Assembly: GCA_043826565.1 (NCBI GenBank)
Contig: JBDRPX010000030.1
Location: forward strand, 21,660-85,659
DNA from: Candidatus Omnitrophota bacterium
GTDB lineage: Bacteria > Omnitrophota > Gorgyraeia > B26-G9
Length of the DNA: 64,000 nucleotides
Direction of reading: 5' to 3'
Made by a program: the position numbers and the translations under genes. Below the pieces are notes generated by a model. The model was not told the DNA's origin, searched no databases, and saw nothing but the letters and a program-made list of their open reading frames with translations. Shown piece by piece: positions 10,801 to 59,769 of this stretch (position 1 is its first letter; each line of letters starts with the position of its first letter).

Positions 10801-12246
10801 TTAATCAATCACATCCACATTCTTTTTATTCATACCCAACACGGATAATGCCGCCTTGGTTTTTTTAAATAATTCATGCGCGGAACGGATCTTTACGGCC
10901 CGGGATAATACATACCCGGGACGCAGATAAAATCCCCGGTAAAATTTCACCAGCAGCCCGAATAATTCCTCACGCTTAAAATTTTCTTCCCATACCGGAA
11001 GTTTAAATCCGGGGCGCGGCTCCCGGGAAAATTCCTGCCAAAGGTCTGTTTTAATAATACCCTGCTTTAGCCCCTGCGCATAGAACTCTGTGCCCGGATA
11101 AGGAGAAAATATGGTAAAATGCGCGTATGCCGGACGTACTGCTTTAGCCAGATTAAAAGAATCCTGAATATCCGCTAAAGTTTCCGAAGGTAATCCGATC
11201 ATAAAATAAGCCAGAGTATCTATGCCGGCCTGCCGGGTGAGATTGAATGTTTCTTTTACTTTTTCAATCGTAAAACCTTTTTTTATTACTTCCAGCATCC
11301 GGTTATTACCGGCTTCGATCCCGTAATGTATGCCCACACACCCGGCTGTTTTTAAAGCCTTGAGCATTTTTTTCTCAACCATATCCACCCGGGTCCGGAT
11401 ATCCCAGCGGATCTTTAACTTCCGGCGGATGATCTCCTCGCATATCTCAAACACACGTTTCTTATCCACGGTAAAAGTATCATCATAAAACAAAAAATCA
11501 CAAATCCCCATTTCCACACATTCGGCAAGCTCATCAACTACATTTTTCGCGCTGCGCGTCCGAAACACCGAAGTTACCGGAGAAAGCGGACGGTCACAGA
11601 AAGCGCAGTGAAACGGACACCCCCGGCTGCTGATAAATGTTGTCGAAAGCCGGCGCCTACTCAATAAAGAACCGTACTGATTCTTATCCACCATCTCCCG
11701 CGCCGGGAACGTGATCGTATCAATATTTTGTATCGGAGCAAAATCATTTTGCACCACTTTTCCCTGCTGATCTTTATACATCAACCCGGGAATTGTTGGG
11801 TAATTTTCCGGATTATTTATGTTCTCTAAAAAAGTAATAAAAGACTCTTCAGCCTCTCCTTTTAAAACAAAATCCACACCCTTAAGATTAATCGTCTCCT
11901 GAGGATATAAATGAACATGAGTTCCGCCTAAAACAACTTTAGCCTGCGGCAGGTTTTTTTTGACCATGGCAACTGTTTTAAAAACATCGATCAGGGTAAA
12001 AGTCATTGCCGTAATTCCCACAACATCATAAGAATCTTTCCCAAGATACGTTTGCAATTGTTCATATGTCCAGTTAAGCGGCTGGGTATCCAGGATTTTC
12101 ACTTCGAATTTATTATATTTTTTAATTGCCGCGGCCAGATAAAGCAAACCCAGCGGTAAATTATAACCCCGGTGTTTTTCTATAATCGCCGGGTTTTTAC
12201 CGATCAGTTCATTCGCTCGGGGAGGATTGATCAGAAGAATTTTCAT
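10801..12246 (-). CDS. B12-binding-domain radical SAM enzyme
   Basis: N-terminal cobalamin-binding-like domain (MKILLINPP...LGLLYLAAAIKKYNKFEVKILD) and a radical SAM CxxxCxxC motif (SRGCPFHCAFCD). Confidence 0.8.
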   Translation of the reverse strand: MKILLINPPRANELIGKNPAIIEKHRGYNLPLGLLYLAAAIKKYNKFEVKILDTQPLNWTYEQLQTYLGKDSYDVVGITAMTFTLIDVFKTVAMVKKNLPQAKVVLGGTHVHLYPQETINLKGVDFVLKGEAEESFITFLENINNPENYPTIPGLMYKDQQGKVVQNDFAPIQNIDTITFPAREMVDKNQYGSLLSRRRLSTTFISSRGCPFHCAFCDRPLSPVTSVFRTRSAKNVVDELAECVEMGICDFLFYDDTFTVDKKRVFEICEEIIRRKLKIRWDIRTRVDMVEKKMLKALKTAGCVGIHYGIEAGNNRMLEVIKKGFTIEKVKETFNLTRQAGIDTLAYFMIGLPSETLADIQDSFNLAKAVRPAYAHFTIFSPYPGTEFYAQGLKQGIIKTDLWQEFSREPRPGFKLPVWEENFKREELFGLLVKFYRGFYLRPGYVLSRAVKIRSAHELFKKTKAALSVLGMNKKNVDVID

Positions 12247-12497: not shown

Positions 12498-12621
12498 GGC
12501 AAAAATTCTCTTTGAGCGGCGCTTTCGAGCGTAATCCGCCCATGGATGGGCGAGATAGTGAGAACGCGCGGCCGCCAGGCACGATGCCGCAGCGGGCTTA
12601 GCTCAGATACGTGTTTTTGCC
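12498..12621. repeat. Copy 1 of a conserved ~110-125 nt structured intergenic element (candidate small RNA, leader or MITE)
   Basis: GGCAAAAAttctctttgaGCGGCGCTTTCGAGCG-[hairpin CCGCCCATGGATGGGCG]-GATAGTGAGAACGCGCGGCCGC-[hairpin GGCACGATGCC]-GCAGCGGGCTTAGC...GTGTTTTTGCC. It is homologous to the copies at 22122-22229 and 59585-59706. Terminal 8-nt inverted repeat GGCAAAAA/TTTTTGCC. Confidence 0.5.
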
Positions 12622-17876: not shown

Positions 17877-19328
17877 TTAGTGCTGCACCCCTTCACTGCG
17901 TACAGCTTTAAATAAACTTACCCATAAAATTTTTAAATCAAACAAAAATGACCTTTGCAGCAAATAGTAGTCATCATATTCCACTTTAACAGGAATCGGC
18001 AATTCATCCCTGCCGTTTACCTGCGCCCATCCGGTAAGTCCGGGAATAATTTTATGCACACCCTTTTTTGTCCTCAGCGCAACTAAATCATCCTGATTAA
18101 ATAATGCCGGCCGCGGCCCGACAAAAGACATGTCGCCTTTTAAAATATTAAAAACCTGCGGCAATTCATCCAGGCTTGTCCTTCTTAAAAATTTCCCTAT
18201 GGGAGTTAAAAATTGATCCGGATTTTTCATAAGATGTGTTGCCAACTGCGGAGAATTTAAACACATAGTCCTGAACTTATACATATCAAAAATAGTATTA
18301 TTAATTCCCACTCTTTCGGAAACATGAAATACCGGCCCCTTAGAAGCAATATTTATTAAAAAAGAAATAATAAGCATCGGAATACTCAGAATAATCATCG
18401 CGATAATTGCCGAGATTACATCGAATATTCTTTTAAAGAATTCATAAACTTTTAGACTCTTTGCTCTCTTGTAAAGCTTTACTTCTTGCCTAATCCCTTC
18501 CTGAAATGAAAGCGGTGAAAAGTTAAACATACCCGTAGCTGCTGAATAATCAATTTGCTTATCTTCATTCAAACGCATAATCTGTTCACTCTTTATAAAC
18601 GGTTTTGCTTTTAACATTTCCAATGCCTTAATCCCTAACAGTGATAATCCTACAGGCACATGGACTTTCATTACTTTTCTATTTAAGGCGCCGGAGGTAA
18701 TATCAACAATATCGTTAAAAGTATACGCCGATCCTCCGCTAATATTAAATTCTTTATTTATCGTATCTTTACTGGTTAAGGCATCCACTGTCGCCTTCGC
18801 CACATCATCAACAAAGACCGGCTGCTGCAGATATTCTCCGGAGCCGATAACCGGAAAAACCGGGAAACGATCTAAAAAACGAATTAATCTGATCATGTTC
18901 CGATCATCCAAAGCACCATAGATCATAGTTGGCCTCAAAATTGTCCATTCGAGCCGTGAGCCTTTAATACACTCTTCTGCTTGCTTGCGAATGGCTTTTG
19001 AATCCGCATTTAATCCTGTAAATATGGCGGTTGTGCTAATAAACACAGCGCGCTTAATCCCCGCATCTTCAGCTGCGTGCACAATCTCAGCAGCATGCCC
19101 AAAGCCTAAAGAAGCAAGATTCAGCAGCATATCACAACCGGACATTGCTGTTTCAAGGCTTTGCTTATCAGCTAAATCTCCATACGCTACTTCATAACCT
19201 AATTCTTTTATCTGGCTGATATCGCTAGTCGGTCTTACAAAGCAGCGCACACTGCCCTTACTACTAAGTAATGGCAATACTCTGCGTCCGGTAAATCCCG
19301 TAGCTCCGGTTACTAATATATTTATCAC
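17877..19328 (-). CDS. Fusion protein: N-terminal NAD-dependent epimerase/dehydratase (SDR) domain plus C-terminal polyprenyl-phosphate sugar phosphotransferase (Bac_transf, WbaP/WcaJ-like initiating transferase)
   Basis: N-terminus MINILVTGATGFTGRRV (Rossmann GxxGxxG). C-terminal ~200 aa FKRIFDVISAIIAMIILSIPMLIISFLI...GPVFHVSERVG...YKFRTM...DELPQVFNILKGDMSFVGPRP are the diagnostic Bac_transf motifs. Confidence 0.7.
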   Translation of the reverse strand: MINILVTGATGFTGRRVLPLLSSKGSVRCFVRPTSDISQIKELGYEVAYGDLADKQSLETAMSGCDMLLNLASLGFGHAAEIVHAAEDAGIKRAVFISTTAIFTGLNADSKAIRKQAEECIKGSRLEWTILRPTMIYGALDDRNMIRLIRFLDRFPVFPVIGSGEYLQQPVFVDDVAKATVDALTSKDTINKEFNISGGSAYTFNDIVDITSGALNRKVMKVHVPVGLSLLGIKALEMLKAKPFIKSEQIMRLNEDKQIDYSAATGMFNFSPLSFQEGIRQEVKLYKRAKSLKVYEFFKRIFDVISAIIAMIILSIPMLIISFLINIASKGPVFHVSERVGINNTIFDMYKFRTMCLNSPQLATHLMKNPDQFLTPIGKFLRRTSLDELPQVFNILKGDMSFVGPRPALFNQDDLVALRTKKGVHKIIPGLTGWAQVNGRDELPIPVKVEYDDYYLLQRSFLFDLKILWVSLFKAVRSEGVQH

Positions 19329-19333
19329 TAAAT

Positions 19334-22081
19334 TTAACCTCTACCTGTTTCAGGCACATTGACTGCGGTCACAGCACGCTGTGACCCTACTTTTTGTAAT
19401 AACTGTAAATATTTCAATGCCAATTTTTTTCTATCGTAATTTTTAGCCACAAATGACCTGGCCCTACTTCCCATTGCCTGACACTGCTTGGGATTATTTT
19501 TCAAACCCCGGATACTTTTTATCATTTCCTTGGTGTCTTCCGGAGCAACAATCGAAGCGCCCCCGGATTCCTTAAGAATACCTGCAGATTCACCGCGCAG
19601 ACAAGCAACAATAGGTTTTTCACAAGCCATTATTTCAAAAATCTTAGACGGAATAAATGCACTAAATCCCGGCACATCCTTCAAAGGCACAAGACAAACA
19701 TCAGATAAATTATAAAAATTAATAACCTTTTCTCGGGGCTGGCTAGGAATAAAACTAACATTATTTATATTCCTATCTTTTACTCTTTTTACCAATCTCT
19801 GTTTAACTGCACCTTCTCCGACAAAAAGAAAATGCATATCTTCTTCCTTCTGCAATTCTTCGGCCGCATCAATAACACTGTATAACCCATGAGAAATCCC
19901 ATGCGACCCAATATAGGAAACAATAAATCTATTTTTTGGAATGCCTAGTTCAGAGCGTAAAGACGTCTCCCCATTGCCCGACTTAAACATTTGAAGATCT
20001 ACCCCATTAGTAATTACACACACTTTATTTTCCGGAATTCCTCTTTTTATAATATCCTGGGCAAAGCCATTTGTTACCGGAACAACTGCAGCTGATGCCC
20101 GATACAAAAATAATTCCATGGCTTTCAGCACCCAAATTAAAAACTTATTTTTCAAAACGCCTAATTCAATGAATATTCCCGGCCAAAGATCCCTAACTTC
20201 AAAAACATAAGGAACCCTGCGCAATCGGGAAATTATAAAGGTACTGATAACAGAGAAAAATGCCGGAGAGCTCACCATCAACACATCTGGTTTCTTCCCG
20301 CGAAAAAGACTTAGCACAACAACACTAATCATAAATGAAATATGCAAAAGTGTTCTTTTAAAAAGCCCTCTATTCGGTGTATCAAAAAGCCAGTGCCTCC
20401 ACACCTTAATTCCATCAATCCATTCTTCCATGAATATCTTCCCGCGATATTCTGCAGGAATAACCCCTGTTGGATGATTGGGAAACCCGGTAAGCACGGT
20501 TACTTCATGCCCCTGACTAACCCATTCCTTAGCCATTTCTAAAAGCCTGGCCTGTGGCGCCCCAATCTCCGGATAAAAATATTGGCATATTACATTAATT
20601 TTCAATGACTTACTTTCACTCTCTTTGCTTTTACCCTTAACCGTAAATCTGGCTCTCACCAAGCTGAAAAACATTACTACCCTCTTTATCAGCACCCCAT
20701 CCTTAATCGCCTTAATAACCCATTCCTTAAAAAACATCGGATTAATAAAAAAACATTTTCCAAATCGTGCCTGGAATTTCTTATTTACAAAAAATGAAGA
20801 AAGATAATAGTAAGCATTAAGGATATCCTTCTGCTGCATTTTGTCAGTTATCATAACCGGCTGATAATTATCCATATATGTCGGAGATGTAACATACCGC
20901 GACCAGTCGGTTATCTTTAAATACCCTTTTTCCTTGGCAATCCGGTAAAGCTCAGTCCCGGGAAACGGGCAAGCAATGGAGATCATTACATCCTGCCCAA
21001 TATCTTTTAATAGTTGCGCTGTTTTCTTTACAGAATTTATATCTTCTCCTAAATTCCCCACCATTGTAAATGTCCCGATTTGAATCCCTATTTTTCTTGC
21101 TAATGTATGCACAGCAACTATCTGTTCATCGGTAATTCCTTTTTTAAGCTGCTTGCGCACCTGAGCATCTCCTGACTCCACGCCCACATCAATACGTATG
21201 CATCCGCTTTGTTTCATTACTCGTAGCATTTCTTCATCAATTGTATTTACCCGGGCATTGGCCATCCATTTATACTCTACGTCAGATTCTTTAAGCAAAG
21301 AACATAGTTCCAGAACCCGATCTTTTTTAAGCGTAATCATATCATCTACAAAATCAAACTGGGTCATCCCATAAGTTTTATTTAAAAACTCAATTTCTGA
21401 GAATATATTTTTAGCACTCCGGGCGCGAAAAATCCTCCCAAAGATTGTATGCGAATCGCAAAAAATACATTGGTTAGGACACCCCCGGCTGGAAAGCAAT
21501 GCAAAAGTATGTCCCTGCGCTACAGAAAATACCGAGTATTTATTAACATCTATCAGATCCCATGCGGGAAAGGGAAGTGTGTTAATATCCTCAATCAATG
21601 CGCGCGGCTGAGTAGTAACAAAAACTCCAGCACTATCGGAAAAACAAATCCCCTTTATCTTACTAAAATCATTTTCCCCTTTACTGTAAGCTTTAAGCAG
21701 CTCCAGTAAAGTCAGCTCCCCTTCTCCGATAATCGCACAATCTATATCTGCACATTCCTCTAATGTTTCTTTAGGCAATGCCGAAACATGCGGACCGCCG
21801 ACAAATACAGGAGTCACAAAAGAACACTCTTTTATTAACTCAGCTAAACGTAAACACTCTGTATACTGGTTAGTCATAAATGATATGCCCACAGCCAAAG
21901 GCGTATATTTATCCATAAGCCCACGGATTTCTTCCTCTGTATGCGGGGCAGCATTTAAATCAACAATAACCGGATCAAATCCTTCCTGCCTTATATAAGC
22001 AGCAAGATACGCCAACCCCAGCGGGGGATTCTTCCGCGGATATGTATATTTCGGATAAAAAAGCAATACTGTTTTAGTCAT
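19334..22081 (-). CDS. Fusion protein: B12-binding radical SAM domain (N-terminal) plus GT4 glycosyltransferase (C-terminal)
   Basis: B12-binding region (LGLAYLAAYIRQEGFDPVIVDLN) and radical SAM CxxxCxxC (SRGCPNQCIFCD). After ~residue 490 comes a GT4 domain (INVICQYFYPEIGAPQARLLEMAKEW...HEVTVLTG...). The start is placed at ATG 22079-22081 (AGGA 6 nt upstream) rather than the GTG at 22105 used by the ORF track. Confidence 0.7.
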   Translation of the reverse strand: MTKTVLLFYPKYTYPRKNPPLGLAYLAAYIRQEGFDPVIVDLNAAPHTEEEIRGLMDKYTPLAVGISFMTNQYTECLRLAELIKECSFVTPVFVGGPHVSALPKETLEECADIDCAIIGEGELTLLELLKAYSKGENDFSKIKGICFSDSAGVFVTTQPRALIEDINTLPFPAWDLIDVNKYSVFSVAQGHTFALLSSRGCPNQCIFCDSHTIFGRIFRARSAKNIFSEIEFLNKTYGMTQFDFVDDMITLKKDRVLELCSLLKESDVEYKWMANARVNTIDEEMLRVMKQSGCIRIDVGVESGDAQVRKQLKKGITDEQIVAVHTLARKIGIQIGTFTMVGNLGEDINSVKKTAQLLKDIGQDVMISIACPFPGTELYRIAKEKGYLKITDWSRYVTSPTYMDNYQPVMITDKMQQKDILNAYYYLSSFFVNKKFQARFGKCFFINPMFFKEWVIKAIKDGVLIKRVVMFFSLVRARFTVKGKSKESESKSLKINVICQYFYPEIGAPQARLLEMAKEWVSQGHEVTVLTGFPNHPTGVIPAEYRGKIFMEEWIDGIKVWRHWLFDTPNRGLFKRTLLHISFMISVVVLSLFRGKKPDVLMVSSPAFFSVISTFIISRLRRVPYVFEVRDLWPGIFIELGVLKNKFLIWVLKAMELFLYRASAAVVPVTNGFAQDIIKRGIPENKVCVITNGVDLQMFKSGNGETSLRSELGIPKNRFIVSYIGSHGISHGLYSVIDAAEELQKEEDMHFLFVGEGAVKQRLVKRVKDRNINNVSFIPSQPREKVINFYNLSDVCLVPLKDVPGFSAFIPSKIFEIMACEKPIVACLRGESAGILKESGGASIVAPEDTKEMIKSIRGLKNNPKQCQAMGSRARSFVAKNYDRKKLALKYLQLLQKVGSQRAVTAVNVPETGRG

Positions 22082-22121
22082 AATTATCCTCAGGATACAA
22101 AACACAAAAATCTAATAAATT

Positions 22122-22229
22122 GGACAAAATTTCTCTTTTCGCGGCGCTTTCGAGCGTGATTTCGTCACGATGACGAAATAGTGAGAACGCGCGGCCGCAG
22201 CGGACTTAGCGTAAAGATGTGTTTTTGCC
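22122..22229. repeat. Copy 2 of the conserved structured intergenic element, ~40 nt upstream of the radical SAM::GT4 gene
   Basis: GGACAAAATttctcttttcgcGGCGCTTTCGAGCG-[hairpin TTTCGTCACGATGACGAAA]-TAGTGAGAACGCGCGGCCGC-AGCGGACTTAGC...GTGTTTTTGCC. It lacks the second hairpin of copies 1 and 3. The first hairpin has a different sequence but keeps its pairing. Confidence 0.5.
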
Positions 22230-22269: not shown

Positions 22270-23265
22270 TTAAAAATGCCTCAATTTAAAGTAAGCTTTC
22301 CAAACCTGTGAAACTGCTCTTTTCCAAAAAGAATTAAGATACCCTTGCCATTTTTTATGATAATCCAAGAAAAATGTTTTCCCGGTCAAGTTGTAACACG
22401 CCTGCATCTGCACAGCATGAAGATTTTGATAGTATAAACTAGTCGGCATTACCGGCTGTTTTTTATCATACCCCTGCGGCCAGTCATAGGTAGTCCAAAA
22501 ACCCAAATCATAGTTTTTAAGATTATGCTCCAATGTCTTTAAACACTCTTTGTATATTTTATGTGCCTGCTTATCATTAAAATAAACCGCATAATCACGA
22601 ACGCCCCATAGCGCCCAGATAAAACCGTTCAATACATGGTTAGGAGAATTAACAATATACTCTTCCAGCCATAAAAACCCATCCTGAGCATCTAAAACTC
22701 CGCCTTCATGCTCTCGCGCTAAAAAATTAAAAGACTTAAATCCTTTATGTGCTCGCTGGGCATACTCATTATCACCGGTTAATTTATGCGCCCGAATCAA
22801 AACAGATAATGCCTGCCCCTGGGCAAGCGCCGAACGCCACGGCGCAGAGAGATTATCCCTCATTTCAAAGGGGAAGTTATATTCCCATAGTAAAACATCG
22901 TCACGTACCATGCGCCCGAATTTCCGAAAATAATTTGCCTGCCGCAGGAAAGCGTTTTTATCTTCTTCGGCATTACTCCTTAGATACTTATCATAATATC
23001 CCAGTGCCTGCTGCGCTATGGCATTAGGATTATACTGAAATCCAATCTTTCCGTAGTAATTCAGCATTATTACTCCATCTTCATCTTTATAGTTGTCATA
23101 CCATGTCTTAGAAAGAAAATTCATCGGATAAAGATTAACTCCTTTAATATCTTCTTCCTCAGGCTTATTCAAAAAAAGAGGCGTATGCCAAAAAGACAGA
23201 TTCGAATTCTTTTTATTTAAAATATATGAATTAAATATGCGTAATAAATAATTACTTCTTTTCAT
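22270..23265 (-). CDS. D-glucuronyl C5-epimerase-family protein (C-terminal domain homologue)
   Basis: PWRSALAQGQALSVLIRAH, HVLNGFIWALWGVRDY, YDLGFWTTYDW align by memory with conserved blocks of the animal and bacterial D-glucuronyl C5-epimerase C-terminal domain (WWSS.SQGQAISVL..; FVLNGF.YSLIGLYDL; YDTGSG.IYDL). Confidence 0.55.
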   Translation of the reverse strand: MKRSNYLLRIFNSYILNKKNSNLSFWHTPLFLNKPEEEDIKGVNLYPMNFLSKTWYDNYKDEDGVIMLNYYGKIGFQYNPNAIAQQALGYYDKYLRSNAEEDKNAFLRQANYFRKFGRMVRDDVLLWEYNFPFEMRDNLSAPWRSALAQGQALSVLIRAHKLTGDNEYAQRAHKGFKSFNFLAREHEGGVLDAQDGFLWLEEYIVNSPNHVLNGFIWALWGVRDYAVYFNDKQAHKIYKECLKTLEHNLKNYDLGFWTTYDWPQGYDKKQPVMPTSLYYQNLHAVQMQACYNLTGKTFFLDYHKKWQGYLNSFWKRAVSQVWKAYFKLRHF

Positions 23266-23307: not shown

Positions 23308-25212
23308 TTAAAATAATTCGCTAACTCTGATCCTTTGTATCGTCTGATCACCTTTTATTGATAAAGGCGTAAAAAACAAACAATCTGTTTTATTTGTTCC
23401 TTTAGGAAAAAGCACCTGCCCCACCTGGAAAGATTTAATCGGCAGATAGTCTTTTTTGAACCCCGCGACAAACTGCCAGTTATCACCGTCCCGCGTTCCC
23501 CAGATAGAAGCACACGAAGATTTATTGACTTTGCTCGGCTCAACCGCGGTGGAAAAAAACAGCCATTTCCCAACCGCACACCACCAGTAAACAGAAGCAT
23601 TAACCGAAAAAATATTTTCCGTTTTCCCGGTTGCCTTATTTAAGCGAAAAATATTATTCCTTTCAAACGGAGTATCAGTCCCAAAATAAATATATTCTTT
23701 AGTAAACATCAGCTGTAAGGCACGGCTCTGCTGCCGCCCTCCCATAACCTGTTTTAACGTTTTAAACCCGTCTTCAGTAACCCATATTCCTGATTCCTTG
23801 TCATCATCTCCTGTCGTAATCCAAATCTTATTTTCCTCAGGATCGCAAAAAACTCCGTGAACATGACGAACCTGATTTTTCTTAAAAGTATAGATTTTCC
23901 CCCAGGATTGCGCATTATCAAAAGAAACATAAATACTAACTTCTTCTCTGCCCGGATTACGAAAATATTCCCCCCAAAAAAATGCTCCTTCATTGTTTTG
24001 GCTCATAACCAGCGGCCGGGAGCCTCTCTTTATCCCGAAACTTTTTTTAATCTTTCCTCCTGGCAAAGTAGTATAAATAGCTTTTCCTCCGACTACCGCC
24101 ATTTGTCCGTTCTTCATCATCGACAGATGATGAATGCCCTTCCGGGTCAAGCGGGAATACAAACGCGAATAAACCTGCTGATTTGAAGGCAATACTACTG
24201 GTAAATCCTCCCAGATATGTCCGCAATCACGGCTCATTGCCAGGCGATTCTCAATCTGCGCATACAGGATATCTCCGTCGACAGTTAAAACTCTACTTCT
24301 TTCTTTTACCACTGTTTCCGGGTTCACAGGAAATCCACTCAGGAATTTTCGGCCGTTTAGATTAGCCTTAGCACAGGTTTTATCTTTTTCCGCCATTAGC
24401 TGATAAGATACTGATAACGTCAATGCTTTACAGAAAAAAGTATCTGTTGCTAAAACCACCTTTTCCGAAAAATGCTTCCAAGCAACAGGGGGTAATGCAT
24501 ATCCTCCTTTTAAAGAATGGATATTAAAATCCAGCTGCTCTAAATACTGAACAACCACATGCGGAGAAATATCTTCCCCCCTACGAAACACTCGGTTATA
24601 GCAATGCAAAGGGTTGGTTTCCTGCATTACCAACCGGCCGCCGGGCCTTAAAACATCATTTATCAGTTTAAACATTTTTTCTGCACCCGGCATATCATTA
24701 AAGGAAAAAAGAAAATTGATTGCATCGAACTTACCCCATTTTTCCAGTTCAACCGCACAAACATCATCACAAATTAAAGTAATATCCAACTTTCTTCCGG
24801 TAAGGCCTTCATAAAACCTTTTTCTCTGCTTTACAAAATCACAAACATCTTCTCTTATATCACAGCCAACAACTTCCGCTCCAAGCATAGCCATTAACAA
24901 AAGCTGGTTTCCACATCCTGACCCTATTTCCAGAATACGCGGCCGCTTTCCTTCTATTCCCATCATAAAATTTATTGCTTGGTTAAGATTATATCCAAAA
25001 TGGCGCAGAAAAAAATTCCTTTGATCATCATCAAAATATTTACCGTAATAATTGCGCCGATCTTTTAAAAGTAATTTTTCCCTTTCCGGATATCCGGCTT
25101 CGGATAGTTCCAACAGCAAATTTGCATACCATTTACTCATACTCTGCGCAGTTAACGGCAGATCCTTTTTATCGGGCAAATAATACTGTGTTTGTTCTGT
25201 ACTCAACATCAT
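23308..25212 (-). CDS. Class I SAM-dependent methyltransferase fused to an uncharacterised C-terminal ~330 aa beta-rich domain
   Basis: The SAM-binding motif ILEIGSGCGNQLLLMAMLGAEVVGCD and downstream acidic/hydrophobic motifs match Methyltransf_11/23. The C-terminal half (…HVHGVFCDPEENKIWITTGDDDKESGIWVTEDG…) has no motif I recognise; it may be a propeller or sialidase-like fold. Confidence 0.5.
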   Translation of the reverse strand: MMLSTEQTQYYLPDKKDLPLTAQSMSKWYANLLLELSEAGYPEREKLLLKDRRNYYGKYFDDDQRNFFLRHFGYNLNQAINFMMGIEGKRPRILEIGSGCGNQLLLMAMLGAEVVGCDIREDVCDFVKQRKRFYEGLTGRKLDITLICDDVCAVELEKWGKFDAINFLFSFNDMPGAEKMFKLINDVLRPGGRLVMQETNPLHCYNRVFRRGEDISPHVVVQYLEQLDFNIHSLKGGYALPPVAWKHFSEKVVLATDTFFCKALTLSVSYQLMAEKDKTCAKANLNGRKFLSGFPVNPETVVKERSRVLTVDGDILYAQIENRLAMSRDCGHIWEDLPVVLPSNQQVYSRLYSRLTRKGIHHLSMMKNGQMAVVGGKAIYTTLPGGKIKKSFGIKRGSRPLVMSQNNEGAFFWGEYFRNPGREEVSIYVSFDNAQSWGKIYTFKKNQVRHVHGVFCDPEENKIWITTGDDDKESGIWVTEDGFKTLKQVMGGRQQSRALQLMFTKEYIYFGTDTPFERNNIFRLNKATGKTENIFSVNASVYWWCAVGKWLFFSTAVEPSKVNKSSCASIWGTRDGDNWQFVAGFKKDYLPIKSFQVGQVLFPKGTNKTDCLFFTPLSIKGDQTIQRIRVSELF

Positions 25213-25214
25213 AA

Positions 25215-26630
25215 TTAATAACCTATAGCGTTGTCTTTTGCTTTTGTCTTGAGTCTATTTATTATCCACTGCTTCTTCCCCCCTTTTTCCGCGGGGATGG
25301 AATCCACATATTCGTATTTTATTGAAAGCGGAGCTATTCTTTTACGTAATTCCTCAATCAAACATTCCCGATCACTGTCCTTAAACTCATCCTTTACAAC
25401 TAATTTTAAATTCACTGAATCCATAGCCTCCTGAATTAATTGTGATTCTAAAATATTCTCAGCATGAAAAGCTGTACTTAAAGCCGCACTCCCCACAGTC
25501 ATGCCATTAGGCAAAGTCAGAAACGACATTTTTCTGCCTTCTAAAGATTTAAGTATCGGTAAAGTACGGCCGCACGGGCAGTTTTTATCCTCCTGGGGAT
25601 AAGCCGCAATATCTCCGGTGCGATAGCGCACAAACGGCATTCCATAATTAAGAAGCCCGGTACAAACCATTTCTCCTGATTGGCCTCGAGGCACGGGAGC
25701 CCCCTGAGAATCAACAATTTCAATTATGCCAACCTCCGGACTTAGATGAAGACTGCCATGTTCACACTCATTCACTGTTGCTACCCATTCTACGCTACCA
25801 TAATGATTAAACACCTTAACCCCGAATCCCTGCTCAAGTGTTTCCCTTGCCTGGGGTTTTAGATATTCTGAACAAGAAATTACGCTTTTTAATGACGGTA
25901 TCTTTTGTTGAGTATCAGCTAAATATTTTGCCATTGGATATAATGATCCGGGGTATCCGATTATATATCGCGGCTTAAACCTCATTAGTTCTTCAAAATA
26001 AAAATCCATATTGATTTGGCTTAAATGATAGCTGGACATATATAATTGCTTTTCCGCAAAATTATAGCGCCAAAAAGGCGGCTTTGTCTGCGCCACCGGA
26101 ACTAATACCTTACCGGTAAAATTCGCCCTGCGGTCATTAATACTTACTCCTGCAGAAGCCCGCATCCGCGTCTCATATAAAGCATATATCCATGTGTAAA
26201 AATCTTTTGTCCAATAAACAGTCAGCGGCGATCCGGAAGTACCACTGGTTTGCTCGGCTATTAAATCCGATTTGGGGATATTTTTGCTTACAAACTGCTG
26301 GGAATTTCCCAATACATCTTTCTTTTCCAGCAAGGGCAGTTTTTGCAAATCAGCTAATGATCTAATATCATTCGGGTTAAAATCCAGTTTTTTAAATAGC
26401 GCCTGGTAATAGGGAACATTCTTGCGGCAATGCCTTAACATATCACGCAATAACCGCAATTGCTGTTTCTGGTATGACTCTTTAGAAGCACACTCATTAG
26501 CTTTTAGCATATACGAATACCTCTGCTGAGAGCTGTTATAGCGCTTGTCTCGAAGATGATAACCGTATAAACTAAACAGCACATTCTGCAGCCAAACCGG
26601 CAATAGATCATATACTTTAGCTATCTTCAT
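25215..26630 (-). CDS. CapK/PaaK-like adenylate-forming enzyme (phenylacetate-CoA ligase family; coenzyme F390 synthetase-like)
   Basis: The AMP-binding P-loop TSGTSGSPLTVYW and the overall length (471 aa) and organisation are typical of CapK-type proteins of capsule loci. Confidence 0.6.
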   Translation of the reverse strand: MKIAKVYDLLPVWLQNVLFSLYGYHLRDKRYNSSQQRYSYMLKANECASKESYQKQQLRLLRDMLRHCRKNVPYYQALFKKLDFNPNDIRSLADLQKLPLLEKKDVLGNSQQFVSKNIPKSDLIAEQTSGTSGSPLTVYWTKDFYTWIYALYETRMRASAGVSINDRRANFTGKVLVPVAQTKPPFWRYNFAEKQLYMSSYHLSQINMDFYFEELMRFKPRYIIGYPGSLYPMAKYLADTQQKIPSLKSVISCSEYLKPQARETLEQGFGVKVFNHYGSVEWVATVNECEHGSLHLSPEVGIIEIVDSQGAPVPRGQSGEMVCTGLLNYGMPFVRYRTGDIAAYPQEDKNCPCGRTLPILKSLEGRKMSFLTLPNGMTVGSAALSTAFHAENILESQLIQEAMDSVNLKLVVKDEFKDSDRECLIEELRKRIAPLSIKYEYVDSIPAEKGGKKQWIINRLKTKAKDNAIGY

Positions 26631-32202: not shown

Positions 32203-33300
32203 TTATCCTTTGAATGTTTTTGTAACTGCTTGAAAAAACTTTTCACATACCATATCCCATGAAGATAGTTTGCTGAATTTTGCAAATGAAGCTTGAGACA
32301 TTTCACATCTCAGTTTTGAATCAACAATTAATTTCCTGATAGCTTTAGCCAATATTTCACTATCTGCCGGCGCAACTAAAATACCTTCACGCTCATTTGT
32401 CAATTGCTCAGGAATTCCACCGACGTTACTTGCTACAATCGGTATCCCAAACGACATAGCCTCCTGAATTACCACACCGTAGGCCTCATAAAGAGAAGGT
32501 AGCACAAATATATCTGCATCCTTATACATTTGCACTAAAGCCTCTCCCTCTAACCGTCCACACAGCGTTACCTTGTCTACTAACTTATATTTTTCTATTA
32601 AACCTCTAAGTTCCTGCTCATATTCTATTTCCTTCACTCCACCAACAAGAGAACATTTCCAATTGTAATCCTCTATTTGCTTTAAGGCTTCTATCAAATA
32701 CCTTTGTCCTTTCAACTCTCGAATATGTGCCACACATAAAATATTTACCACATTTGTACTTTTTCGTTTCCATTTTTCTTGATTGTTTTTTACTTTAGAA
32801 GATGAATAAACTACTTTGATTTTATGTTTATTTGCCTTATAATTGTCGCTCAACTCCTTGCTTAAATATTCACTATTAACAGTCAGCAAATGTGCTGATT
32901 GTACATACAAAAACAACATAACATCCCTCAACAACTTATTAATACCCCATTTCAATCTAGGGCTAGGTATTTGCCTGAAACTAACAATAATTTTAATATC
33001 CTTTCTAAATAGACGTATGAACCAGTTTGATAAAATAAACGCATGATAAAATGTCCCCTCTTGTAGGATAATAGCTTTTTTTGCAAGACGGGTAAAACGC
33101 CGAATAAAATATGCGTTGATTTTAAGGGCATTCTTTGGACGATTTAAAAAATTTATATCAGATTCATCCGGTAAAATAACCGTAACATCTTCCTTGTTTT
33201 TTAAATCCTCCAACACTTTGGAATAAAAAAGCTCGCCCCCCGTTTGGGGAGAAGGAAATAAGTTAATACAATAATATATGATCAAATTTGTATTGTGCAA
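32203..33300 (-). CDS. GT4 glycosyltransferase
   Basis: EAYGVVIQEAMSFGIPIVASNVGGIPEQLTNEREGILVAPADSEILAKAI. Confidence 0.75.
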   Translation of the reverse strand: MHNTNLIIYYCINLFPSPQTGGELFYSKVLEDLKNKEDVTVILPDESDINFLNRPKNALKINAYFIRRFTRLAKKAIILQEGTFYHAFILSNWFIRLFRKDIKIIVSFRQIPSPRLKWGINKLLRDVMLFLYVQSAHLLTVNSEYLSKELSDNYKANKHKIKVVYSSSKVKNNQEKWKRKSTNVVNILCVAHIRELKGQRYLIEALKQIEDYNWKCSLVGGVKEIEYEQELRGLIEKYKLVDKVTLCGRLEGEALVQMYKDADIFVLPSLYEAYGVVIQEAMSFGIPIVASNVGGIPEQLTNEREGILVAPADSEILAKAIRKLIVDSKLRCEMSQASFAKFSKLSSWDMVCEKFFQAVTKTFKG

Positions 33301-35612
33301 GATTGGCCTGCCTCATTCTGAGTAGTAATACTTTTCTCTATAAAATTTATATTGCATTCATCTGTTGAATAAATATCCTTGAAGTTTTCCTTTTTAAATG
33401 GCACCAACTCCGCCACTGAAAAAATAGAGTCCCTTTCATGATTCTTTTCCAATTTAAAATCACTCATTGAATACACACTACAAGGCCCTCTTGGATTGCT
33501 TGGAATATCTGTTTTTATTATTTTTCTATACCCTTCTACCCCCCACACCCCAAGATGATTATACATAAACCCTTGTTCATGATTTCTGGAAATAAAACCG
33601 CTACCTTTCAACTCAACTTCCCATCCATCGTCACTCCTTGCACACATTGCACTTAAATTTTTTACCTCAATGTTTTTCAATTTATCAAATATCTTCAGCT
33701 TTGAAACCATAATAATTCTATTAGAAAAACAATGATATTTTTTTTCAAATAAGAAACTTTCAAATGATTTTCTATAAGTAATTATTGTCGCATATTTTTC
33801 TTTTTTTTTGGCAATGATAAGTCCTGGACCATAACAATATTTTCTATTGCCGTCAATCACGAAAAAAGGAAGATCTGTCGTTGGCAAATAGCCTGGTTTT
33901 AGATGTTCCAAAATAGGCAATAGACTACCTTTTCCTGGAATACCTAACATCGCTATTCCTGCTATACCAACCTGATGTATTCCCCCCGACCATGCTGCTG
34001 CCGCTTCACATCCTCCAAATAGTCCTAAGTAGTAATTCAACCCTCCCACAATGCAAAAATTAGATTCCTCCATGTTAATGATACAGTCCTGCCTTTCCAT
34101 CGGAATAGCTACATCAGTTGTCGGAGAAATTAGTTTATCGTCGACATTAAAAAGAAAATATCCACATAGCGCATTATAGGTAGTAGCATTGTGATTCCAT
34201 GCCATTCTAATCTTCCCATATTGATTCATCGCAGTTGGCATAAGTTTATTATCCTCCACCCACCTCTGAAGATATCCTATTGCTTTATTAACCGCCCTTT
34301 TAAACTGATCTGATCGAGTTTTATTTTTAGTCCTTTTCGATGCTTCATAAAAAGCATAAATTGCTGAAACTTGGTGATAAATGTTATTTGCTCCTCTTCC
34401 CATATATGCTACTTCACCATCTGGGGTTAAAAGATTTAGAGAAAATTGACATCCTTTAAGAAAAATGTTTAACAATTTTGGGTCATCATTGTAAATTAGT
34501 GCTCGAGCTAAACACGCTAAGGAGTATTGATGATACGTAATATCCCGGTTGCTTAAATTACTATATCTTTCTCTAAAATTATCGCAAATCAGCCCATCTT
34601 TAGATTGATCCTCCTCAAGACGCTTCAAGCATTGACCCACTCTTTTTGACTCTGATTTTCCCGTATAACGATGTCTCGTACTGTGCCAATGAACTCTTAA
34701 GGCATATACGTTAGTGGGCTGATAATGTGTAGTTTCTTTCATTTTAAATAAAAACTTGTTATATTTTGTTACGTCCTCATCTTCTGAAAGCAATTTTACA
34801 CACTCTACAAATACAGGATTTTTAAAATCTGTATTTTGCCACGCAATGGATGATGCTAAATAGTCGCTATATATTCGTATCATAAAATCCATCGCTAATT
34901 TCGCGCTTTTTAGAAATTCTTTATCGCCCGTTGTCGCATGGCATCTAAGAAAACAATATGCGGCATAAATCGTAACATAGTGGTCACCTGGTACTTGTGG
35001 AGGATACGCACTGCTTTCGGAATCCAGATTAAAATCAATAATTCCGCCTAAATCATAGGATTTCAAAAAAATTTCAATTTTATCAAAATGTTTTTTTAAG
35101 GAGATGAATAAAAAGGTGACCCCTCCTAAATTATCGAGATTTTGCCGGCGTTTTCGGGATCGCAAATAACTCATAATGTTTATTTGTCTAGTATCACGCC
35201 ACTCACCGAAAAATTTCTTTAAAATATAACTCGTTTTTCCGAAATATCTTTGCTTTTTGAGCGAAATTACGTCTTCCATAACTTCTGCATGACTTGGAAT
35301 CTTTATGTCTTTGCGGAGATCATTAGTAACATTTTTTTCAGCTAATGGAAGCCGAAAAAAATCTCCTTTACACACAGAGCACACTTTTTTTTCTTCCTCT
35401 TTGTCATAGATAACTACATGTAACTTCTTCTTATTAAAATAGAATTTAGCTTTAATCGATTTTCCATGGCGATATGTATCTATATCTATCCATTTTGATT
35501 CAAAAGATCCACTATCAACCTTAGCAAGTGTTACCCGTTGATCCTCCGCAATAACTTGTTGAGCAAAAAGAATGTTTGAGATATTCAATGCGATTTTATT
35601 TAAATTTGTCAT
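33282..35612 (-). CDS. Heparinase II/III-like protein, as commonly embedded in polysaccharide biosynthesis loci
   Basis: Large (~775 aa) soluble protein whose C-terminal region (GGLNYYLGLFGGCEAAAAWSGGIHQVGIAGIAMLGIPGKG...) resembles the Hepar_II_III family. The N-terminal half is alpha-rich. The assignment is by motif memory only. Confidence 0.4.
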   Translation of the reverse strand: MTNLNKIALNISNILFAQQVIAEDQRVTLAKVDSGSFESKWIDIDTYRHGKSIKAKFYFNKKKLHVVIYDKEEEKKVCSVCKGDFFRLPLAEKNVTNDLRKDIKIPSHAEVMEDVISLKKQRYFGKTSYILKKFFGEWRDTRQINIMSYLRSRKRRQNLDNLGGVTFLFISLKKHFDKIEIFLKSYDLGGIIDFNLDSESSAYPPQVPGDHYVTIYAAYCFLRCHATTGDKEFLKSAKLAMDFMIRIYSDYLASSIAWQNTDFKNPVFVECVKLLSEDEDVTKYNKFLFKMKETTHYQPTNVYALRVHWHSTRHRYTGKSESKRVGQCLKRLEEDQSKDGLICDNFRERYSNLSNRDITYHQYSLACLARALIYNDDPKLLNIFLKGCQFSLNLLTPDGEVAYMGRGANNIYHQVSAIYAFYEASKRTKNKTRSDQFKRAVNKAIGYLQRWVEDNKLMPTAMNQYGKIRMAWNHNATTYNALCGYFLFNVDDKLISPTTDVAIPMERQDCIINMEESNFCIVGGLNYYLGLFGGCEAAAAWSGGIHQVGIAGIAMLGIPGKGSLLPILEHLKPGYLPTTDLPFFVIDGNRKYCYGPGLIIAKKKEKYATIITYRKSFESFLFEKKYHCFSNRIIMVSKLKIFDKLKNIEVKNLSAMCARSDDGWEVELKGSGFISRNHEQGFMYNHLGVWGVEGYRKIIKTDIPSNPRGPCSVYSMSDFKLEKNHERDSIFSVAELVPFKKENFKDIYSTDECNINFIEKSITTQNEAGQSCTIQI

Positions 35613-35643
35613 TTTTCCCAATTCTCGTGCATTTAATAATAAG

Positions 35644-36603
35644 TTAATTAAATAAATACGGAATATTTGAGTAATCCACAAGTTTTTTCTTTCCGCGGTC
35701 TATTTTATCCTTATAAACAAAATGAAATAGGCTATCAAACAATACTTTTGGATTCGGCAAGAAAAACCCGACTTTATATGCCTTGATTAAGCAGTCTATC
35801 GATAGTCTGTTGCGCAATGACTTGTGCGCTAATATTGCCCCTTGATAAAAATATTCTCTTATTTGACCCGTTATAATCTTATTCATTTGTTTAGAAATTT
35901 TATTGTTTGATTTAAACTTTTTCAGAACTGCAAGATGAGTTAATGTTGAATACACTGGATCTCTTTTGCTTATCCCCTCTTTATTTATCCTAAATATTAC
36001 AAGTGGGTCGTCAACATAGTCAAAACAACATACTTGTGCTAAACGTAACCACATATCATAATCTTCAGAAGGACTCATCCTTTGGTCGAATAATCCCACC
36101 CTTTGGATCAAAGACTTTTTTACCACAACTGTTGATGTTCTAACAAAATATGACTGGAGCAATTCTAAAAGCACATCTCCTCTGTATGCTTTCTTCCACT
36201 GAAATGTTGTTTGCGGTTGTCTTTCTCCATATTCCTCTCTAAAGTAATCAGAATAAACTAAACCAGTTTGTTCATTTTCAGTGAAAAGCTTCATCTGTTT
36301 CTCAAGCTTATTTGAAATCCAACTATCATCAGAGTCTAAAAAAGCAACGAATTCTCCTGTGCTCTTCTTTATTCCCTCATTTCTAGCAAAAGCTACTCCT
36401 TTATTAGGTTGCCAAATATATTTTATATTTTCAGAAAACTGTGCCACCATCTTATCTGTTCCATCAGTAGACCCATCATCCACAATTATTATCTCTATGT
36501 TTGCGTATGTTTGATCAAGCACGCTTTTTACCGCATTTTGAAGATATTTTCTTCGATTAAATGTAGGAATTATAACACTTACTAATGGATAATAATTTCC
36601 CAT
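35644..36603 (-). CDS. GT2 glycosyltransferase
   Basis: VSVIIPTFNRRKYLQNAVKSVLDQTY.NIEIIIVDDGSTDGT...FARNEGIKKSTGEFVAFLDSDDSW (GT2 DxD and DD motifs). Confidence 0.8.
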   Translation of the reverse strand: MGNYYPLVSVIIPTFNRRKYLQNAVKSVLDQTYANIEIIIVDDGSTDGTDKMVAQFSENIKYIWQPNKGVAFARNEGIKKSTGEFVAFLDSDDSWISNKLEKQMKLFTENEQTGLVYSDYFREEYGERQPQTTFQWKKAYRGDVLLELLQSYFVRTSTVVVKKSLIQRVGLFDQRMSPSEDYDMWLRLAQVCCFDYVDDPLVIFRINKEGISKRDPVYSTLTHLAVLKKFKSNNKISKQMNKIITGQIREYFYQGAILAHKSLRNRLSIDCLIKAYKVGFFLPNPKVLFDSLFHFVYKDKIDRGKKKLVDYSNIPYLFN

Positions 36604-39982: not shown

Positions 39983-40741
39983 TTACTGTTTACCCCTTGC
40001 TCCTCCTGCGTGCTTTGCGAGAGCCCATCCACTCGTTTCATTAACACCAAGCAGCTGAAAACCTGGATCTAGTTTGATTTGTTGTACGCTGCGAAAATGC
40101 TTAACATGATGGATATCATCCAATAAAACAATATATGGCTGATCGCCCATGGTTTCCTTCATAATCATGAACTCAAGCATCCCGATACCTCCAGCTGAAT
40201 CCAAAACAATCAAAGGATTTCTGTTCTTGAACAGCTGAAGCCACTTTTCTAACAATCCCTCGCCGTCGTAATTTAGTATTTTATTAAAGAAATAATGGGG
40301 ATAGTTTTTTATGCTTATTTTTCTAATCGCTCCTCGGCACTCCTGGGTATAAAACCCAACCGGGTTAGTAACAACGTCGATGAAGATATCCTCATAATCT
40401 CTATGGTTAATTAGAGCCTCGTCGTTTGAGATAAAATCAAGAGCTTGTTTTTGCCTAACACTCTGCCCCCAAAGACACTTTACAAAAGGAAAATGTAATA
40501 GATTCTTTTTTGCTTCACGCCAGCTCTGCCAGTTTGTTTCAATAGTTACAAATATTTCCGGAGGAGAAGATTTTGGAAATGACTCAGCAATAAATGTTGT
40601 AGATCCCAGCCCCTGATATGTGCCTGTTTCAACAACACATTTGATCTTTTCCTCTACCACTACATCCTGAAGCAATTGAGAAAGTTCACTGCTTGCATGC
40701 ATCGACATTGATGCATCGGGATGTTTTGTATATAATTTCAT
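39983..40741 (-). CDS. Class I SAM-dependent methyltransferase (CmcI/Methyltransf_24-like)
   Basis: VVETGTYQGLGSTTFIAE (SAM-binding glycine-rich loop) and ...IVLLDDIHH. Confidence 0.4.
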   Translation of the reverse strand: MKLYTKHPDASMSMHASSELSQLLQDVVVEEKIKCVVETGTYQGLGSTTFIAESFPKSSPPEIFVTIETNWQSWREAKKNLLHFPFVKCLWGQSVRQKQALDFISNDEALINHRDYEDIFIDVVTNPVGFYTQECRGAIRKISIKNYPHYFFNKILNYDGEGLLEKWLQLFKNRNPLIVLDSAGGIGMLEFMIMKETMGDQPYIVLLDDIHHVKHFRSVQQIKLDPGFQLLGVNETSGWALAKHAGGARGKQ

Positions 40742-50393: not shown

Positions 50394-51155
50394 TTACCGT
50401 GTATGTGGACTAGTTTCCGGAATTTCCGGCTCCGGAGGCTCATCATCAGGAACAAACCCCGCAGCTTCCGGCTCTTCATCAAAAGTCTGAATCGTTCCAG
50501 AATCTGAACTTGTAAATTTAAGAGAAACTGCTTTAGCTAATCTTATAACTTCTCCATCCAGGGCAACAACTTGTATCTCTCCGCGAAGAGAAACAATTTC
50601 TACTTTTCTTGTTTTCGCGTTTACCTTAATTTTTGCAACCGCATCCTGAGGAATCACTGCTTTAACTCCTACGGTAACCACCTCTACTATCCCAGAGATA
50701 CTACTTAATTCTACCACACCAGTCTTATTATTAAAATTAATTCTTACAACTTCTCCTTTTTTTAAATACGTAGTTGAATTCCCGCTGATAACAGTTACCT
50801 TTTCATTAACAACCTTAAAGCTAGCACCGGCAACCCCTTCTTTAATCGACGCGATTAAACGCTCTCCCTCCAGCACTGTCGCCACAGAATCTGCGGCCAC
50901 AACTTGAATAAAACCTTCGGTTGAGGTAATGTCAACCGCACCTTCGAGTAACTCAACAATAGACCCGGAAGCTATCCTTGGTAATGTGTCTGATTCTTCT
51001 ACCTTCATAATGCTGCCATCAGGGGCTGTAATCGTAACCTTACCACTCCTATACATTATTGCAGATTGCACTAATACCGGAAATAAAAGAAATCCAAGTA
51101 TCATTGCTAACCTCACCCTAAAACACTTACTATTGTTTTTGGTTACAATAAACAT
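50394..51155 (-). CDS. Secreted beta-rich protein, paralogue 1 of 2, with an acidic/proline C-terminal tail EPPEPEIPETSP
   Basis: Signal peptide, then a conserved QSAIMYRSGKVTITAPDG start. Roughly half its residues are identical to the 51910..52671 paralogue along the full length. Confidence 0.4.
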   Translation of the reverse strand: MFIVTKNNSKCFRVRLAMILGFLLFPVLVQSAIMYRSGKVTITAPDGSIMKVEESDTLPRIASGSIVELLEGAVDITSTEGFIQVVAADSVATVLEGERLIASIKEGVAGASFKVVNEKVTVISGNSTTYLKKGEVVRINFNNKTGVVELSSISGIVEVVTVGVKAVIPQDAVAKIKVNAKTRKVEIVSLRGEIQVVALDGEVIRLAKAVSLKFTSSDSGTIQTFDEEPEAAGFVPDDEPPEPEIPETSPHTR

Positions 51156-59584: not shown

Positions 59585-59706
59585 CGCAAAAATTATCTTT
59601 GAACGGCGCTTTGAATCGTCATTTTTGCACGAGGCAAAAATAGATTCAACGCGCGGCCGCAAGGCATGGATGCCGCTGCGGGCTTAGTGAAAAGATGTGT
59701 TTTGCG
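59585..59706. repeat. Copy 3 of the conserved structured intergenic element, ~45 nt upstream of the LbH acyltransferase gene
   Basis: CGCAAAAATtatctttgaacGGCGCTTTGAATCG-[hairpin ATTTTTGCACGAGGCAAAAAT]-AGATTCAACGCGCGGCCGC-[hairpin GGCATGGATGCC]-GCTGCGGGCTTAG...GTGTTTTGCG. The terminal inverted repeat is CGCAAAA/TTTTGCG, a compensatory change relative to GGCAAAAA/TTTTTGCC in copies 1 and 2. Confidence 0.5.
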
Positions 59707-59769
59707 ATATCCCTATATATTTCATTATATATTTCCATTCTTTATTACGGGTGCAGGCAAGCAGCGCCC

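Follow-up and report, generated by a model that had tools for sequence, protein, structure and literature searches.

In a 64,000-nucleotide stretch of DNA from Candidatus Omnitrophota bacterium (GenBank assembly GCA_043826565.1, contig JBDRPX010000030.1; the whole stretch that was analysed is called the window hereafter), we analysed a gene whose 915-aa product joins a cobalamin (B12)-binding radical S-adenosylmethionine (SAM) module to a glycosyltransferase (GT) of family GT4. The gene is a real single open reading frame (ORF) and not two genes. The fusion is a young, lineage-specific accident rather than a designed bifunctional machine, and what accompanies the radical SAM enzyme from locus to locus is an upstream gene encoding a C5-epimerase-like (C5-epim_C) protein, not a particular GT. 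In the joint picture that we favour, and that we consider reasonably probable, the fusion is real and young, its radical SAM half is a class-B enzyme that modifies a sugar and has the epimerase-like protein as its partner, and its GT half is WbuB-like.

The fused ORF (19334..22081) lies on the minus strand, as do all genes in this part of the window and all the features described below. It runs from an ATG at 22081 to a stop codon at 19334-19336, with no internal stop. An alternative in-frame GTG at 22105 would give a protein of 923 aa; the ATG was favoured as the start because a GAGGA Shine-Dalgarno sequence is found 5 nt before it. The deduced protein is identical to NCBI MFH2138498.1, a 'cobalamin-dependent protein' from a Candidatus Omnitrophota metagenome-assembled genome (MAG). 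Four Pfam domains were detected, all far above their gathering scores: the B12-binding (Rossmann) domain at residues 18-128 (PF02310, 21698..22030, 82.3 bits vs. a threshold of 32.1), the radical SAM core at residues 197-358 (PF04055, 21008..21493, 78.2 vs. 29.5 bits), and the N-lobe (Glyco_trans_4_4, residues 507-693, 20003-20563, 72 bits) and C-lobe (Glycos_transf_1, residues 708-876, 19454-19960, 73.2 bits) of the GT4 half. The CxxxCxxC motif (21458-21481) is part of SRGCPNQCIFCD, residues 198-209 of the fused protein, and its cysteines C201, C205 and C208 were invariant in 88 homologues, among which the GGPH (95-98) and GEGE (119-122) motifs of the B12-binding domain were each at least 90% conserved. 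The radical SAM module ends with a helical extension (residues ~390-486, 20624..20914) that matches no Pfam family, is conserved across the orthogroup and lies in a region that aligns to AprD4 as far as profile position 429. The hydrophobic moment of these C-terminal helices (muH 0.13-0.37, as compared to a protein mean of 0.22) did not support an amphipathic membrane anchor. The junction (20603..20623) consists of a six-residue linker, ESESKS, followed by the TTG codon of L493, from which the GT4 half (residues 493-915, 19334..20605) extends to the end of the protein.

The reading frame is unbroken at the junction, and the same sequence was found in the Logan assembly of SRR26275510 (100% identity over 4536 nt including the junction), which may share reads with the MAG. 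A sequence-only reading of this DNA had proposed that a B12-binding radical SAM module, with its CxxxCxxC motif, and a complete GT4 are present in one ORF, and that a frameshift at the junction would instead reveal two genes. The domain scores, the invariant cysteines and the continuous frame bear out the fusion; the position of the junction, which had been put at 20640-20700, was slightly off, being located here at about 20603-20650.

Synteny points to the origin of the fusion. The best syntenic relative, locus L094, contains the same cassette in the same order, as separate genes for the CapK-like protein (32% identity), a methyltransferase (51%, and with the same length of 634 aa), C5-epim_C (74%), the radical SAM enzyme (66%), the GT4 (60%) and a short-chain dehydrogenase/reductase (SDR, 60%), followed by a priming transferase. 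In this locus, the stop codon of the radical SAM gene and the start codon of the GT gene overlap as ATGA. The two genes are set apart by a methyltransferase gene in L092 (radical SAM 68%, GT 62%), by a second radical SAM gene in L177 (radical SAM 51%) and by an oxidoreductase gene in L088 (radical SAM 52%), where the GT4 is itself fused to the priming transferase. The GT start of the relatives, ATG AAA ATT AAY, reads TTG AAA ATT AAT in the window (from L493), and the tail of the radical SAM half, FTVKGKSK, resembles the tails of its orthologues, for example SLVKKIKD. Directly before the TTG, at 20608-20615, the tandem AAGTAAGT is found. When one AAGT was removed in silico, a 491-aa ORF ending in KSKESESH-TGA was obtained, which overlaps a TTG-initiated 423-aa GT ORF as TTGA. 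Both the restored sizes and the overlap match those of the relatives (485-501 aa and ~400-430 aa, respectively). This is a strong indication, although not proof, that two translationally coupled genes became one when 4 bp were duplicated in tandem (AAGT to AAGTAAGT), and the event was judged to be recent because the former stop and start both persist, each in its original frame. We also considered a frame change at an earlier point of the radical SAM tail, whose +1 frame reads RLRVKAKRVKVSH*, and rejected it, given that the frame-0 tail matches the orthologues and that the deletion of a single AAGT is enough. Since a duplication of 4 bp where a stop and a start overlap accounts for the join, the fusion alone says little about a concerted modification.

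The same features could be taken to mean that the fusion has no meaning at all, being an error, a minority allele or a neutral or deleterious duplication, with the GT made from the internal TTG. Several facts lend weight to this alternative, the first two of which also tell against our interpretation: only one genome carries the exact fusion, its two assemblies (identical over 4.5 kb) may come from the same reads, the closest relatives (60-68% identity) are unfused, and the former TGA and TTG are both preserved in their original frames, at a distance of one 4-bp unit. A further point against our interpretation is that 13 tandem 4-mers occur in the 2748-nt ORF, so that a coincidental one within about 20 nt of a given site has a chance of about 9%. 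On the other hand, a 4-bp tandem duplication is atypical as a read or assembly error, two assemblers agree on it, and an erroneous fusion would need the loss of a stop together with a frame match. Moreover, no good Shine-Dalgarno sequence is properly spaced before the internal TTG, a second pair of genes in the same locus (SDR and priming transferase) is also fused, and independent fusions of B12 radical SAM enzymes to GT4 proteins elsewhere indicate that the architecture is tolerated. We therefore regard a meaningless fusion as improbable, and the narrower case of an artefact or a minority allele as slightly more so.

Proteins of this architecture are rare. Only two others that contain the two modules were returned by a full-length search of 5.8 billion clusters, namely P0002 (882 aa) and the Patescibacteria protein P0045 (892 aa), and a profile built from the three fusions found no further ones. 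In an HMMER scan of 1.84 billion representatives, the top matches were separate proteins, namely a 490-aa radical SAM protein with 52% identity to residues 4-486 and a 414-aa GT with 50% identity to residues 493-896. The radical SAM orthogroup comprises about 75 listed clusters (485-501 aa, 39-68% identity), all of which are unfused. Unfused, too, are the 120 closest homologues listed for the GT half, which are 50-66% identical and nearly all ~400-430 aa long, one of them (65%) being named WbuB. The notion of the fusion as a conserved design must therefore be dropped, the closest relatives of both halves being separate genes.

The two other proteins arose separately. The GT4 of P0002 is just 27% identical to the window GT half, and this protein joins an orthologous radical SAM enzyme to another GT4 by an event of its own, because the GT4 proteins in L002, L088 and L177 are only 27-34% identical. 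P0045, which combines a distant radical SAM enzyme with a distant GT4, represents a third independent event. The locus of P0045 (L001, a Patescibacteria contig of 22.7 kb) also contains a second complete B12 radical SAM gene and a third that runs off the edge of the locus, two radical SAM genes with SPASM hits (one of them faint), four SAM methyltransferases and several GT2 and GT4 genes; it is unusually dense in radical enzymes for a sugar pathway. Elsewhere, relatives of the window GT occur in fusions with Wzy_C, FkbM methyltransferase, Bac_transf, heparinase II/III or a second GT4, and this GT family is generally prone to fusion. Very long multidomain proteins, with co-occurring GT group 1 and radical SAM domains, have been noted to abound in the genomes of Omnitrophota, whose polysaccharide cassettes were described as hypervariable (10.64898/2026.06.07.730766). 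This preprint and the neighbouring SDR-transferase fusion fit a lineage that tolerates such fusions. The stand-alone 529-aa proteins P0011 and P0013, found in an operon with the order GT4-methyltransferase-unknown-hexapeptide, were considered as an unfused equivalent and rejected (radical SAM identity ~35%, GT4 identity 24%). The searches also gave five giant proteins of 2000-2600 aa (P0127, P0146, P0165, P0185 and P0255), tandem polyproteins with 4-8 stretches that match the B12 radical SAM module.

The gene context of the radical SAM enzyme was then compared by tblastn of the window proteins against 177 loci, of which the 176 with a radical SAM match were classified. A C5-epim_C gene was present in every locus that has a radical SAM protein with at least 45% identity and enough upstream flank (L002, L088, L092, L094/L095 and L177). 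These loci represent five independent contexts besides the window; the epimerase-like gene is upstream in all five and directly abuts the radical SAM gene in four of them. In all loci at or above this identity, a WbuB-like GT4 was also matched with 100 bits or more, whereas neither C5-epim_C nor a WbuB-like GT4 (at least 100 bits) was found in any of the 168 loci with a B12 radical SAM protein below 45% identity. The identity of C5-epim_C (47-74%) tracks that of the radical SAM enzyme (51-68%), while the identity of the GT does not (27-34% in L002, L088 and L177). Genome contigs scanned with a radical SAM alignment, and metagenome contigs scanned with a tighter orthogroup alignment, were used only as a negative control; among the matches listed, relatives had at most 38% identity, with no C5-epim_C or WbuB-like neighbours.

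The C5-epim_C protein of the window (331 aa, 22270..23265) is D-glucuronyl C5-epimerase-like and gave 164.9 bits with PF06662, as compared to a threshold of 23.3. It aligns to human and zebrafish Glce, with conservation of the WxEEY motif, of two YD motifs and of the Tyr that is changed to Phe in 6I01; the numbering of the Glce residues and the catalytic roles of the Glu and Tyr residues follow the Glce literature. The protein probably functions as a hexuronyl C5-epimerase, or as an enzyme with a closely related mechanism. In L089, the locus of the closest stand-alone GT homologue, the GT-SDR arrangement is kept and a heparinase II/III-like gene is found upstream instead, and other relatives of the GT (P0228, P0244) are fused to heparinase II/III domains. 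This suggests that (alpha/alpha)-barrel enzymes acting on uronic acids are recurrent partners of the window GT family. In the searchable literature we found no precedent for the pair of C5-epimerase-like and B12 radical SAM genes, or for the B12 radical SAM-GT4 architecture.

As far as its family is concerned, the radical SAM half has the CxxxCxxC motif, the PF04055 domain and a predicted fold that matches radical SAM enzymes. It also has the N-terminal B12-binding domain of class B, with PF02310 covering residues 18-128 and an alignment to TokK, CysS, OxsB, QCMT and TsrM; GGPH is common to TokK, and GEGE to TokK, CysS and QCMT. These motifs are compatible with cobalamin binding. The AlphaFold2 model of this half, based on the 88 homologues, had a pLDDT of 95.8 and a pTM of 0.93. 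In a Foldseek search of the PDB, AprD4 came first (E 5e-28, TM 0.70-0.79), followed by TsrM, QCMT/MgmA, OxsB, CysS and TokK, and the class-B C-methyltransferases TokK, CysS and QCMT had E values from 1e-20 to 1e-24. None of the curated models was passed, and the orthogroup lies outside every curated family model: the scores of the NCBIfam radical SAM equivalogs, given here with their cut-offs, were 185.2/577.6 bits for HpnJ, 174.7/481 for BchE, 169.8/750 for ApyD, 137.6/500 for AprD4, 129/650 for HpnR, 128.9/600 for PhpK and 112.9/360 for MJ_0865/QCMT.

The outcome that we prefer, tentatively, is the C-methylation of a sugar, in which a substrate radical would take a methyl group from methylcobalamin. 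Among the B12 radical SAM enzymes characterised to date, C-methyltransferases form the largest group, and some of them act on carbohydrates; GenK and GenD1 C-methylate aminoglycoside sugars (PMC12931638). Several results run counter to this assignment. All the NCBIfam radical SAM equivalogs were missed by far, and among solved proteins the catalytic core is closest to AprD4, a dehydratase that does not bind cobalamin. Several ordinary SAM methyltransferases are encoded at the locus, so that methyl groups on the polymer alone would not implicate the radical SAM enzyme, and no uronic-acid-forming dehydrogenase was identified inside the window. The C-methylation proposed by the sequence-only reading is one option only, the closest solved relative being a cobalamin-independent sugar 1,2-diol dehydratase.

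An AprD4-like, cobalamin-independent dehydratase, with a reductase (possibly the SDR) completing the deoxygenation to give a deoxy sugar, is the first of the other options, and we consider it unlikely. Such an enzyme would take a hydrogen atom from a position adjacent to a vicinal diol of the sugar, and water would then be eliminated. Its appeal is that AprD4 (6FD2) was the top solved match not only by fold but also by sequence (phmmer 1.3e-31), with 185 bits for the family profile as compared to 161 for QCMT and 111 for TokK, that the substrate of AprD4 is a carbohydrate, and that an SDR belongs to the cassette. However, the likeness is limited to the core and the part that follows it: the profile match is confined to positions 157-429, and the N-terminal domain of AprD4 contributes 3 bits, whereas TokK, CysS, OxsB and QCMT align through their N-terminal domain. 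The AprD4 model NF033070 was matched only at HMM positions 166-427 of 456, with the score far below its cut-off of 500, so the protein falls outside this family. Nor is the SDR a dedicated partner, since it accompanies the priming transferase and the GT even where the radical SAM gene is missing (L089). AprD4 does not bind cobalamin (PMC12931638); it shows that a related scaffold can lack this cofactor. Read from its sequence, the radical SAM half resembles a cobalamin binder at its front and a sugar dehydratase in its core.

Some other radical change on a uronic acid, made together with the C5-epimerase-like partner and without any methyl transfer, would be a C5 epimerisation, a ring contraction of the OxsB/HpnJ type or the formation of a C-C bond, and appears more unlikely still than the dehydratase. 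Of the NCBIfam models, those of the non-methylating HpnJ and BchE families scored best, but far under their cut-offs; OxsB is among the structural matches, and the strict pairing is with a protein related to enzymes that work on the C5 position of hexuronic acids. Against this, non-methylating class-B enzymes are a minority of those characterised (PMC12931638). A second, stand-alone B12-binding radical SAM gene is present in the window outside the polysaccharide cluster (10801-12246, 481 aa); its product is 31% identical to the radical SAM half of the fusion, and it is followed by a gene for a 573-aa tetratricopeptide repeat (TPR) protein.

The GT half was assigned to GT4 by both of its Rossmann-like lobes, which passed the Pfam thresholds, and by its stand-alone homologues; its GT4 matches in the PDB include PglA, BshA and TarM. 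We describe it as WbuB/WcaI-like, with a GT-B fold. The expectation that it would pass GT4 models held for Pfam and failed for the NCBIfam WcaI family NF007640, which was matched over its full length (2-406 of 411) with 195.5 bits, below the cut-off of 276; the WcaI equivalog TIGR04007 gave 106.5 vs. 800 bits.

Together with the preferred C-methylation, these assignments lead us to propose the following pathway. The cassette would supply an adenylating enzyme, a methyltransferase, the C5-epimerase-like protein, the B12-type radical SAM enzyme, the WbuB-like GT4, an SDR and a priming phosphoglycosyltransferase. By analogy with Wzx/Wzy pathways, the SDR-transferase protein would be the priming enzyme, loading undecaprenyl phosphate with a sugar phosphate, and the GT4 half, as expected of WbuB/WcaI-type enzymes, would add the second sugar to the undecaprenyl-diphosphate-linked sugar at the cytoplasmic face of the membrane. 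In the radical SAM half, the [4Fe-4S] cluster would reductively cleave SAM, and the resulting 5'-deoxyadenosyl radical would abstract a hydrogen atom from a sugar, either that of the lipid-linked intermediate or that of a nucleotide-sugar donor. This sugar would probably be a hexuronic acid that is also handled by the epimerase-like partner, and the methyl transfer from methylcobalamin would then give a C-methyl sugar. In the window lineage, the 4-bp duplication before TTGA would have shifted the radical SAM frame into the GT frame, leaving the six-residue linker, and the fusion would simply tether two enzymes that were already co-translated side by side. It gives weak Rosetta-stone support for their cooperation, not for a concerted mechanism. 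The role in repeat-unit assembly that had been suggested fits the Wzx/Wzy context, while the part of that suggestion that placed the modification 'in concert' with transfer gains little from the fusion alone.

The Wzx/Wzy-type polysaccharide cluster extends over about 32 kb, from ~49-50 kb down to 17.9 kb. In the order of transcription, its upstream part contains Poly_export, a Wzc-like tyrosine-kinase/GNVR protein, two Wzy_C genes and a Wzx flippase. The two Wzy_C genes, both O-antigen polymerase/ligase-like, adjoin each other; the product of the first (43942-46215), but not that of the second (42264-43937), is noted for C-terminal TPR repeats. The sugar genes comprise one GT9, one GT2 and seven further GT4s, in addition to SAM methyltransferases. 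At the end of the cluster come, in order, the CapK/PaaK-like adenylating enzyme (25215-26630) and the 634-aa class-I SAM methyltransferase (23308-25212), both members of the syntenic cassette, the C5-epim_C gene, the fusion gene and the SDR-transferase gene. The methyltransferase has a beta-propeller-like C-terminal region, with a weak Sortilin-Vps10/BNR-like match at the C-terminus. The last gene (17877..19328) starts 5 nt after the stop of the fusion and encodes an SDR/NAD-binding part (residues 4-138 onward) fused to a Bac_transf polyprenyl-phosphate glycosylphosphotransferase (residues 299-475); L094 and L177 have a separate gene for each of these halves. The fusion gene had been called the first gene of the locus, which is wrong: it is the penultimate gene of the cluster, with only the SDR-transferase gene after it. 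Four ORFs without a Pfam match were seen inside or at the edge of the cluster (33282-35681, 799 aa; 39983-40741, 252 aa; 50394-51155, 253 aa; 51910-52671, 253 aa). A scan of 17.6-23.4 kb for promoters and terminators gave no useful excess over the shuffled expectation.

The 188-nt spacer between the C5-epimerase-like gene and the fusion gene contains, as had been noticed before, the second copy of a repeated element (22125..22229, ~105 nt), a GC-rich imperfect palindrome. Its sister copies (12500-12621 and 59587-59707) are found in the same orientation in intergenic spacers, the copies being ~105-125 nt long; copy 1 precedes another B12 radical SAM gene and copy 3 a hexapeptide acyltransferase gene. 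RNAalifold predicted 43 pairs for the three copies; compensatory changes occur in 11 of these, for the most part within the central hairpin. No credible Rfam match was obtained with the gathering threshold on the whole window or with an E-value threshold on the spacer, and no cobalamin or SAM riboswitch was found. The element was absent from all the other loci compared except L096, which is the window's own sequence, and it was read as an insertion because the flanking genes abut in the orthologous cassettes. It looks like an inserted REPIN/MITE-like repeat and not like a regulator of the radical SAM gene or a part of the conserved cassette. A weak Y1_Tnp/IS200-like match (E 6e-6) was obtained for a 197-aa ORF (58159-58752) located ~0.9 kb downstream of copy 3, and this ORF could encode a REP-associated tyrosine transposase linked to the repeats.

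While the domain families are known, the architecture and the gene pair appear new from the literature searched, and the orthogroup, which passed no curated family model, represents a moderately interesting lead to unexplored radical sugar chemistry in surface polysaccharides. It is possible, though doubtful, that the C5-epimerase-like protein and the class-B radical SAM enzyme constitute an undescribed module for cobalamin-dependent chemistry on a lipid-linked uronic acid, for example C-methylation at or near C5. If the proposal is true, no B12 radical SAM enzyme before this one would have been assigned to the assembly of a cell-surface glycan, and the three independent fusions to GT4 would reflect an on-membrane hand-over between sugar transfer and radical modification; in the literature searched, we found no report of a B12 radical SAM enzyme characterised in a surface-polysaccharide role. 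Genes of this kind are common in the surface-polysaccharide loci of uncultivated anaerobes, with several in L001, L090, L094 and L177. The locus defines a tractable orthogroup (the ~75 listed clusters) with a fixed C5-epimerase-like partner and an equally fixed pathway position beside a second-sugar GT and a priming enzyme, and it predicts an unusual sugar, that is, a C-branched, deoxygenated or epimerised uronic acid. The gene also illustrates cleanly how a bifunctional protein can arise when 4 bp are duplicated where a stop and a start overlap.

Among known systems, AprD4, an enzyme of apramycin biosynthesis, is the closest solved protein to the core and C-terminal region of the radical SAM half, in sequence as well as in fold; its substrate is a sugar, and its N-terminal domain is Rossmann-like. 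However, the identity is 23%, the N-terminal domains are not alignable, and AprD4 uses no cobalamin, while the window protein keeps the motifs of cobalamin binders. AprD4 is also neither fused to a GT nor part of a polysaccharide pathway. The class-B C-methyltransferases TokK, CysS and QCMT/MgmA share with the window protein the order of B12-binding, radical SAM and C-terminal domains, and the GGPH and GEGE motifs, but are only 16-21% identical to it, and no curated model of theirs was passed. The substrates of the known ones are secondary metabolites, cofactors or proteins, not intermediates of cell-surface polysaccharides, and in the searchable literature none was found that is joined to a glycosyltransferase or has a C5-epimerase-like partner. 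GT4 enzymes of the WbuB/WcaI type, from O-antigen and colanic-acid-type pathways, match the GT half from end to end in both lobes and, like it, sit beside a priming transferase; the window GT differs in falling below the family cut-off and in being the C-terminal half of a larger protein. Lastly, the C5-epim_C protein shares with Glce (6HZZ, 4PW2) the C5-epim_C domain (165 bits), the WxEEY and YD motifs and the Tyr of 6I01. It corresponds to the C-terminal catalytic barrel only (331 aa, as compared to ~600 aa) and is bacterial and apparently cytoplasmic, whereas the animal enzyme acts on the finished polymer in the Golgi.

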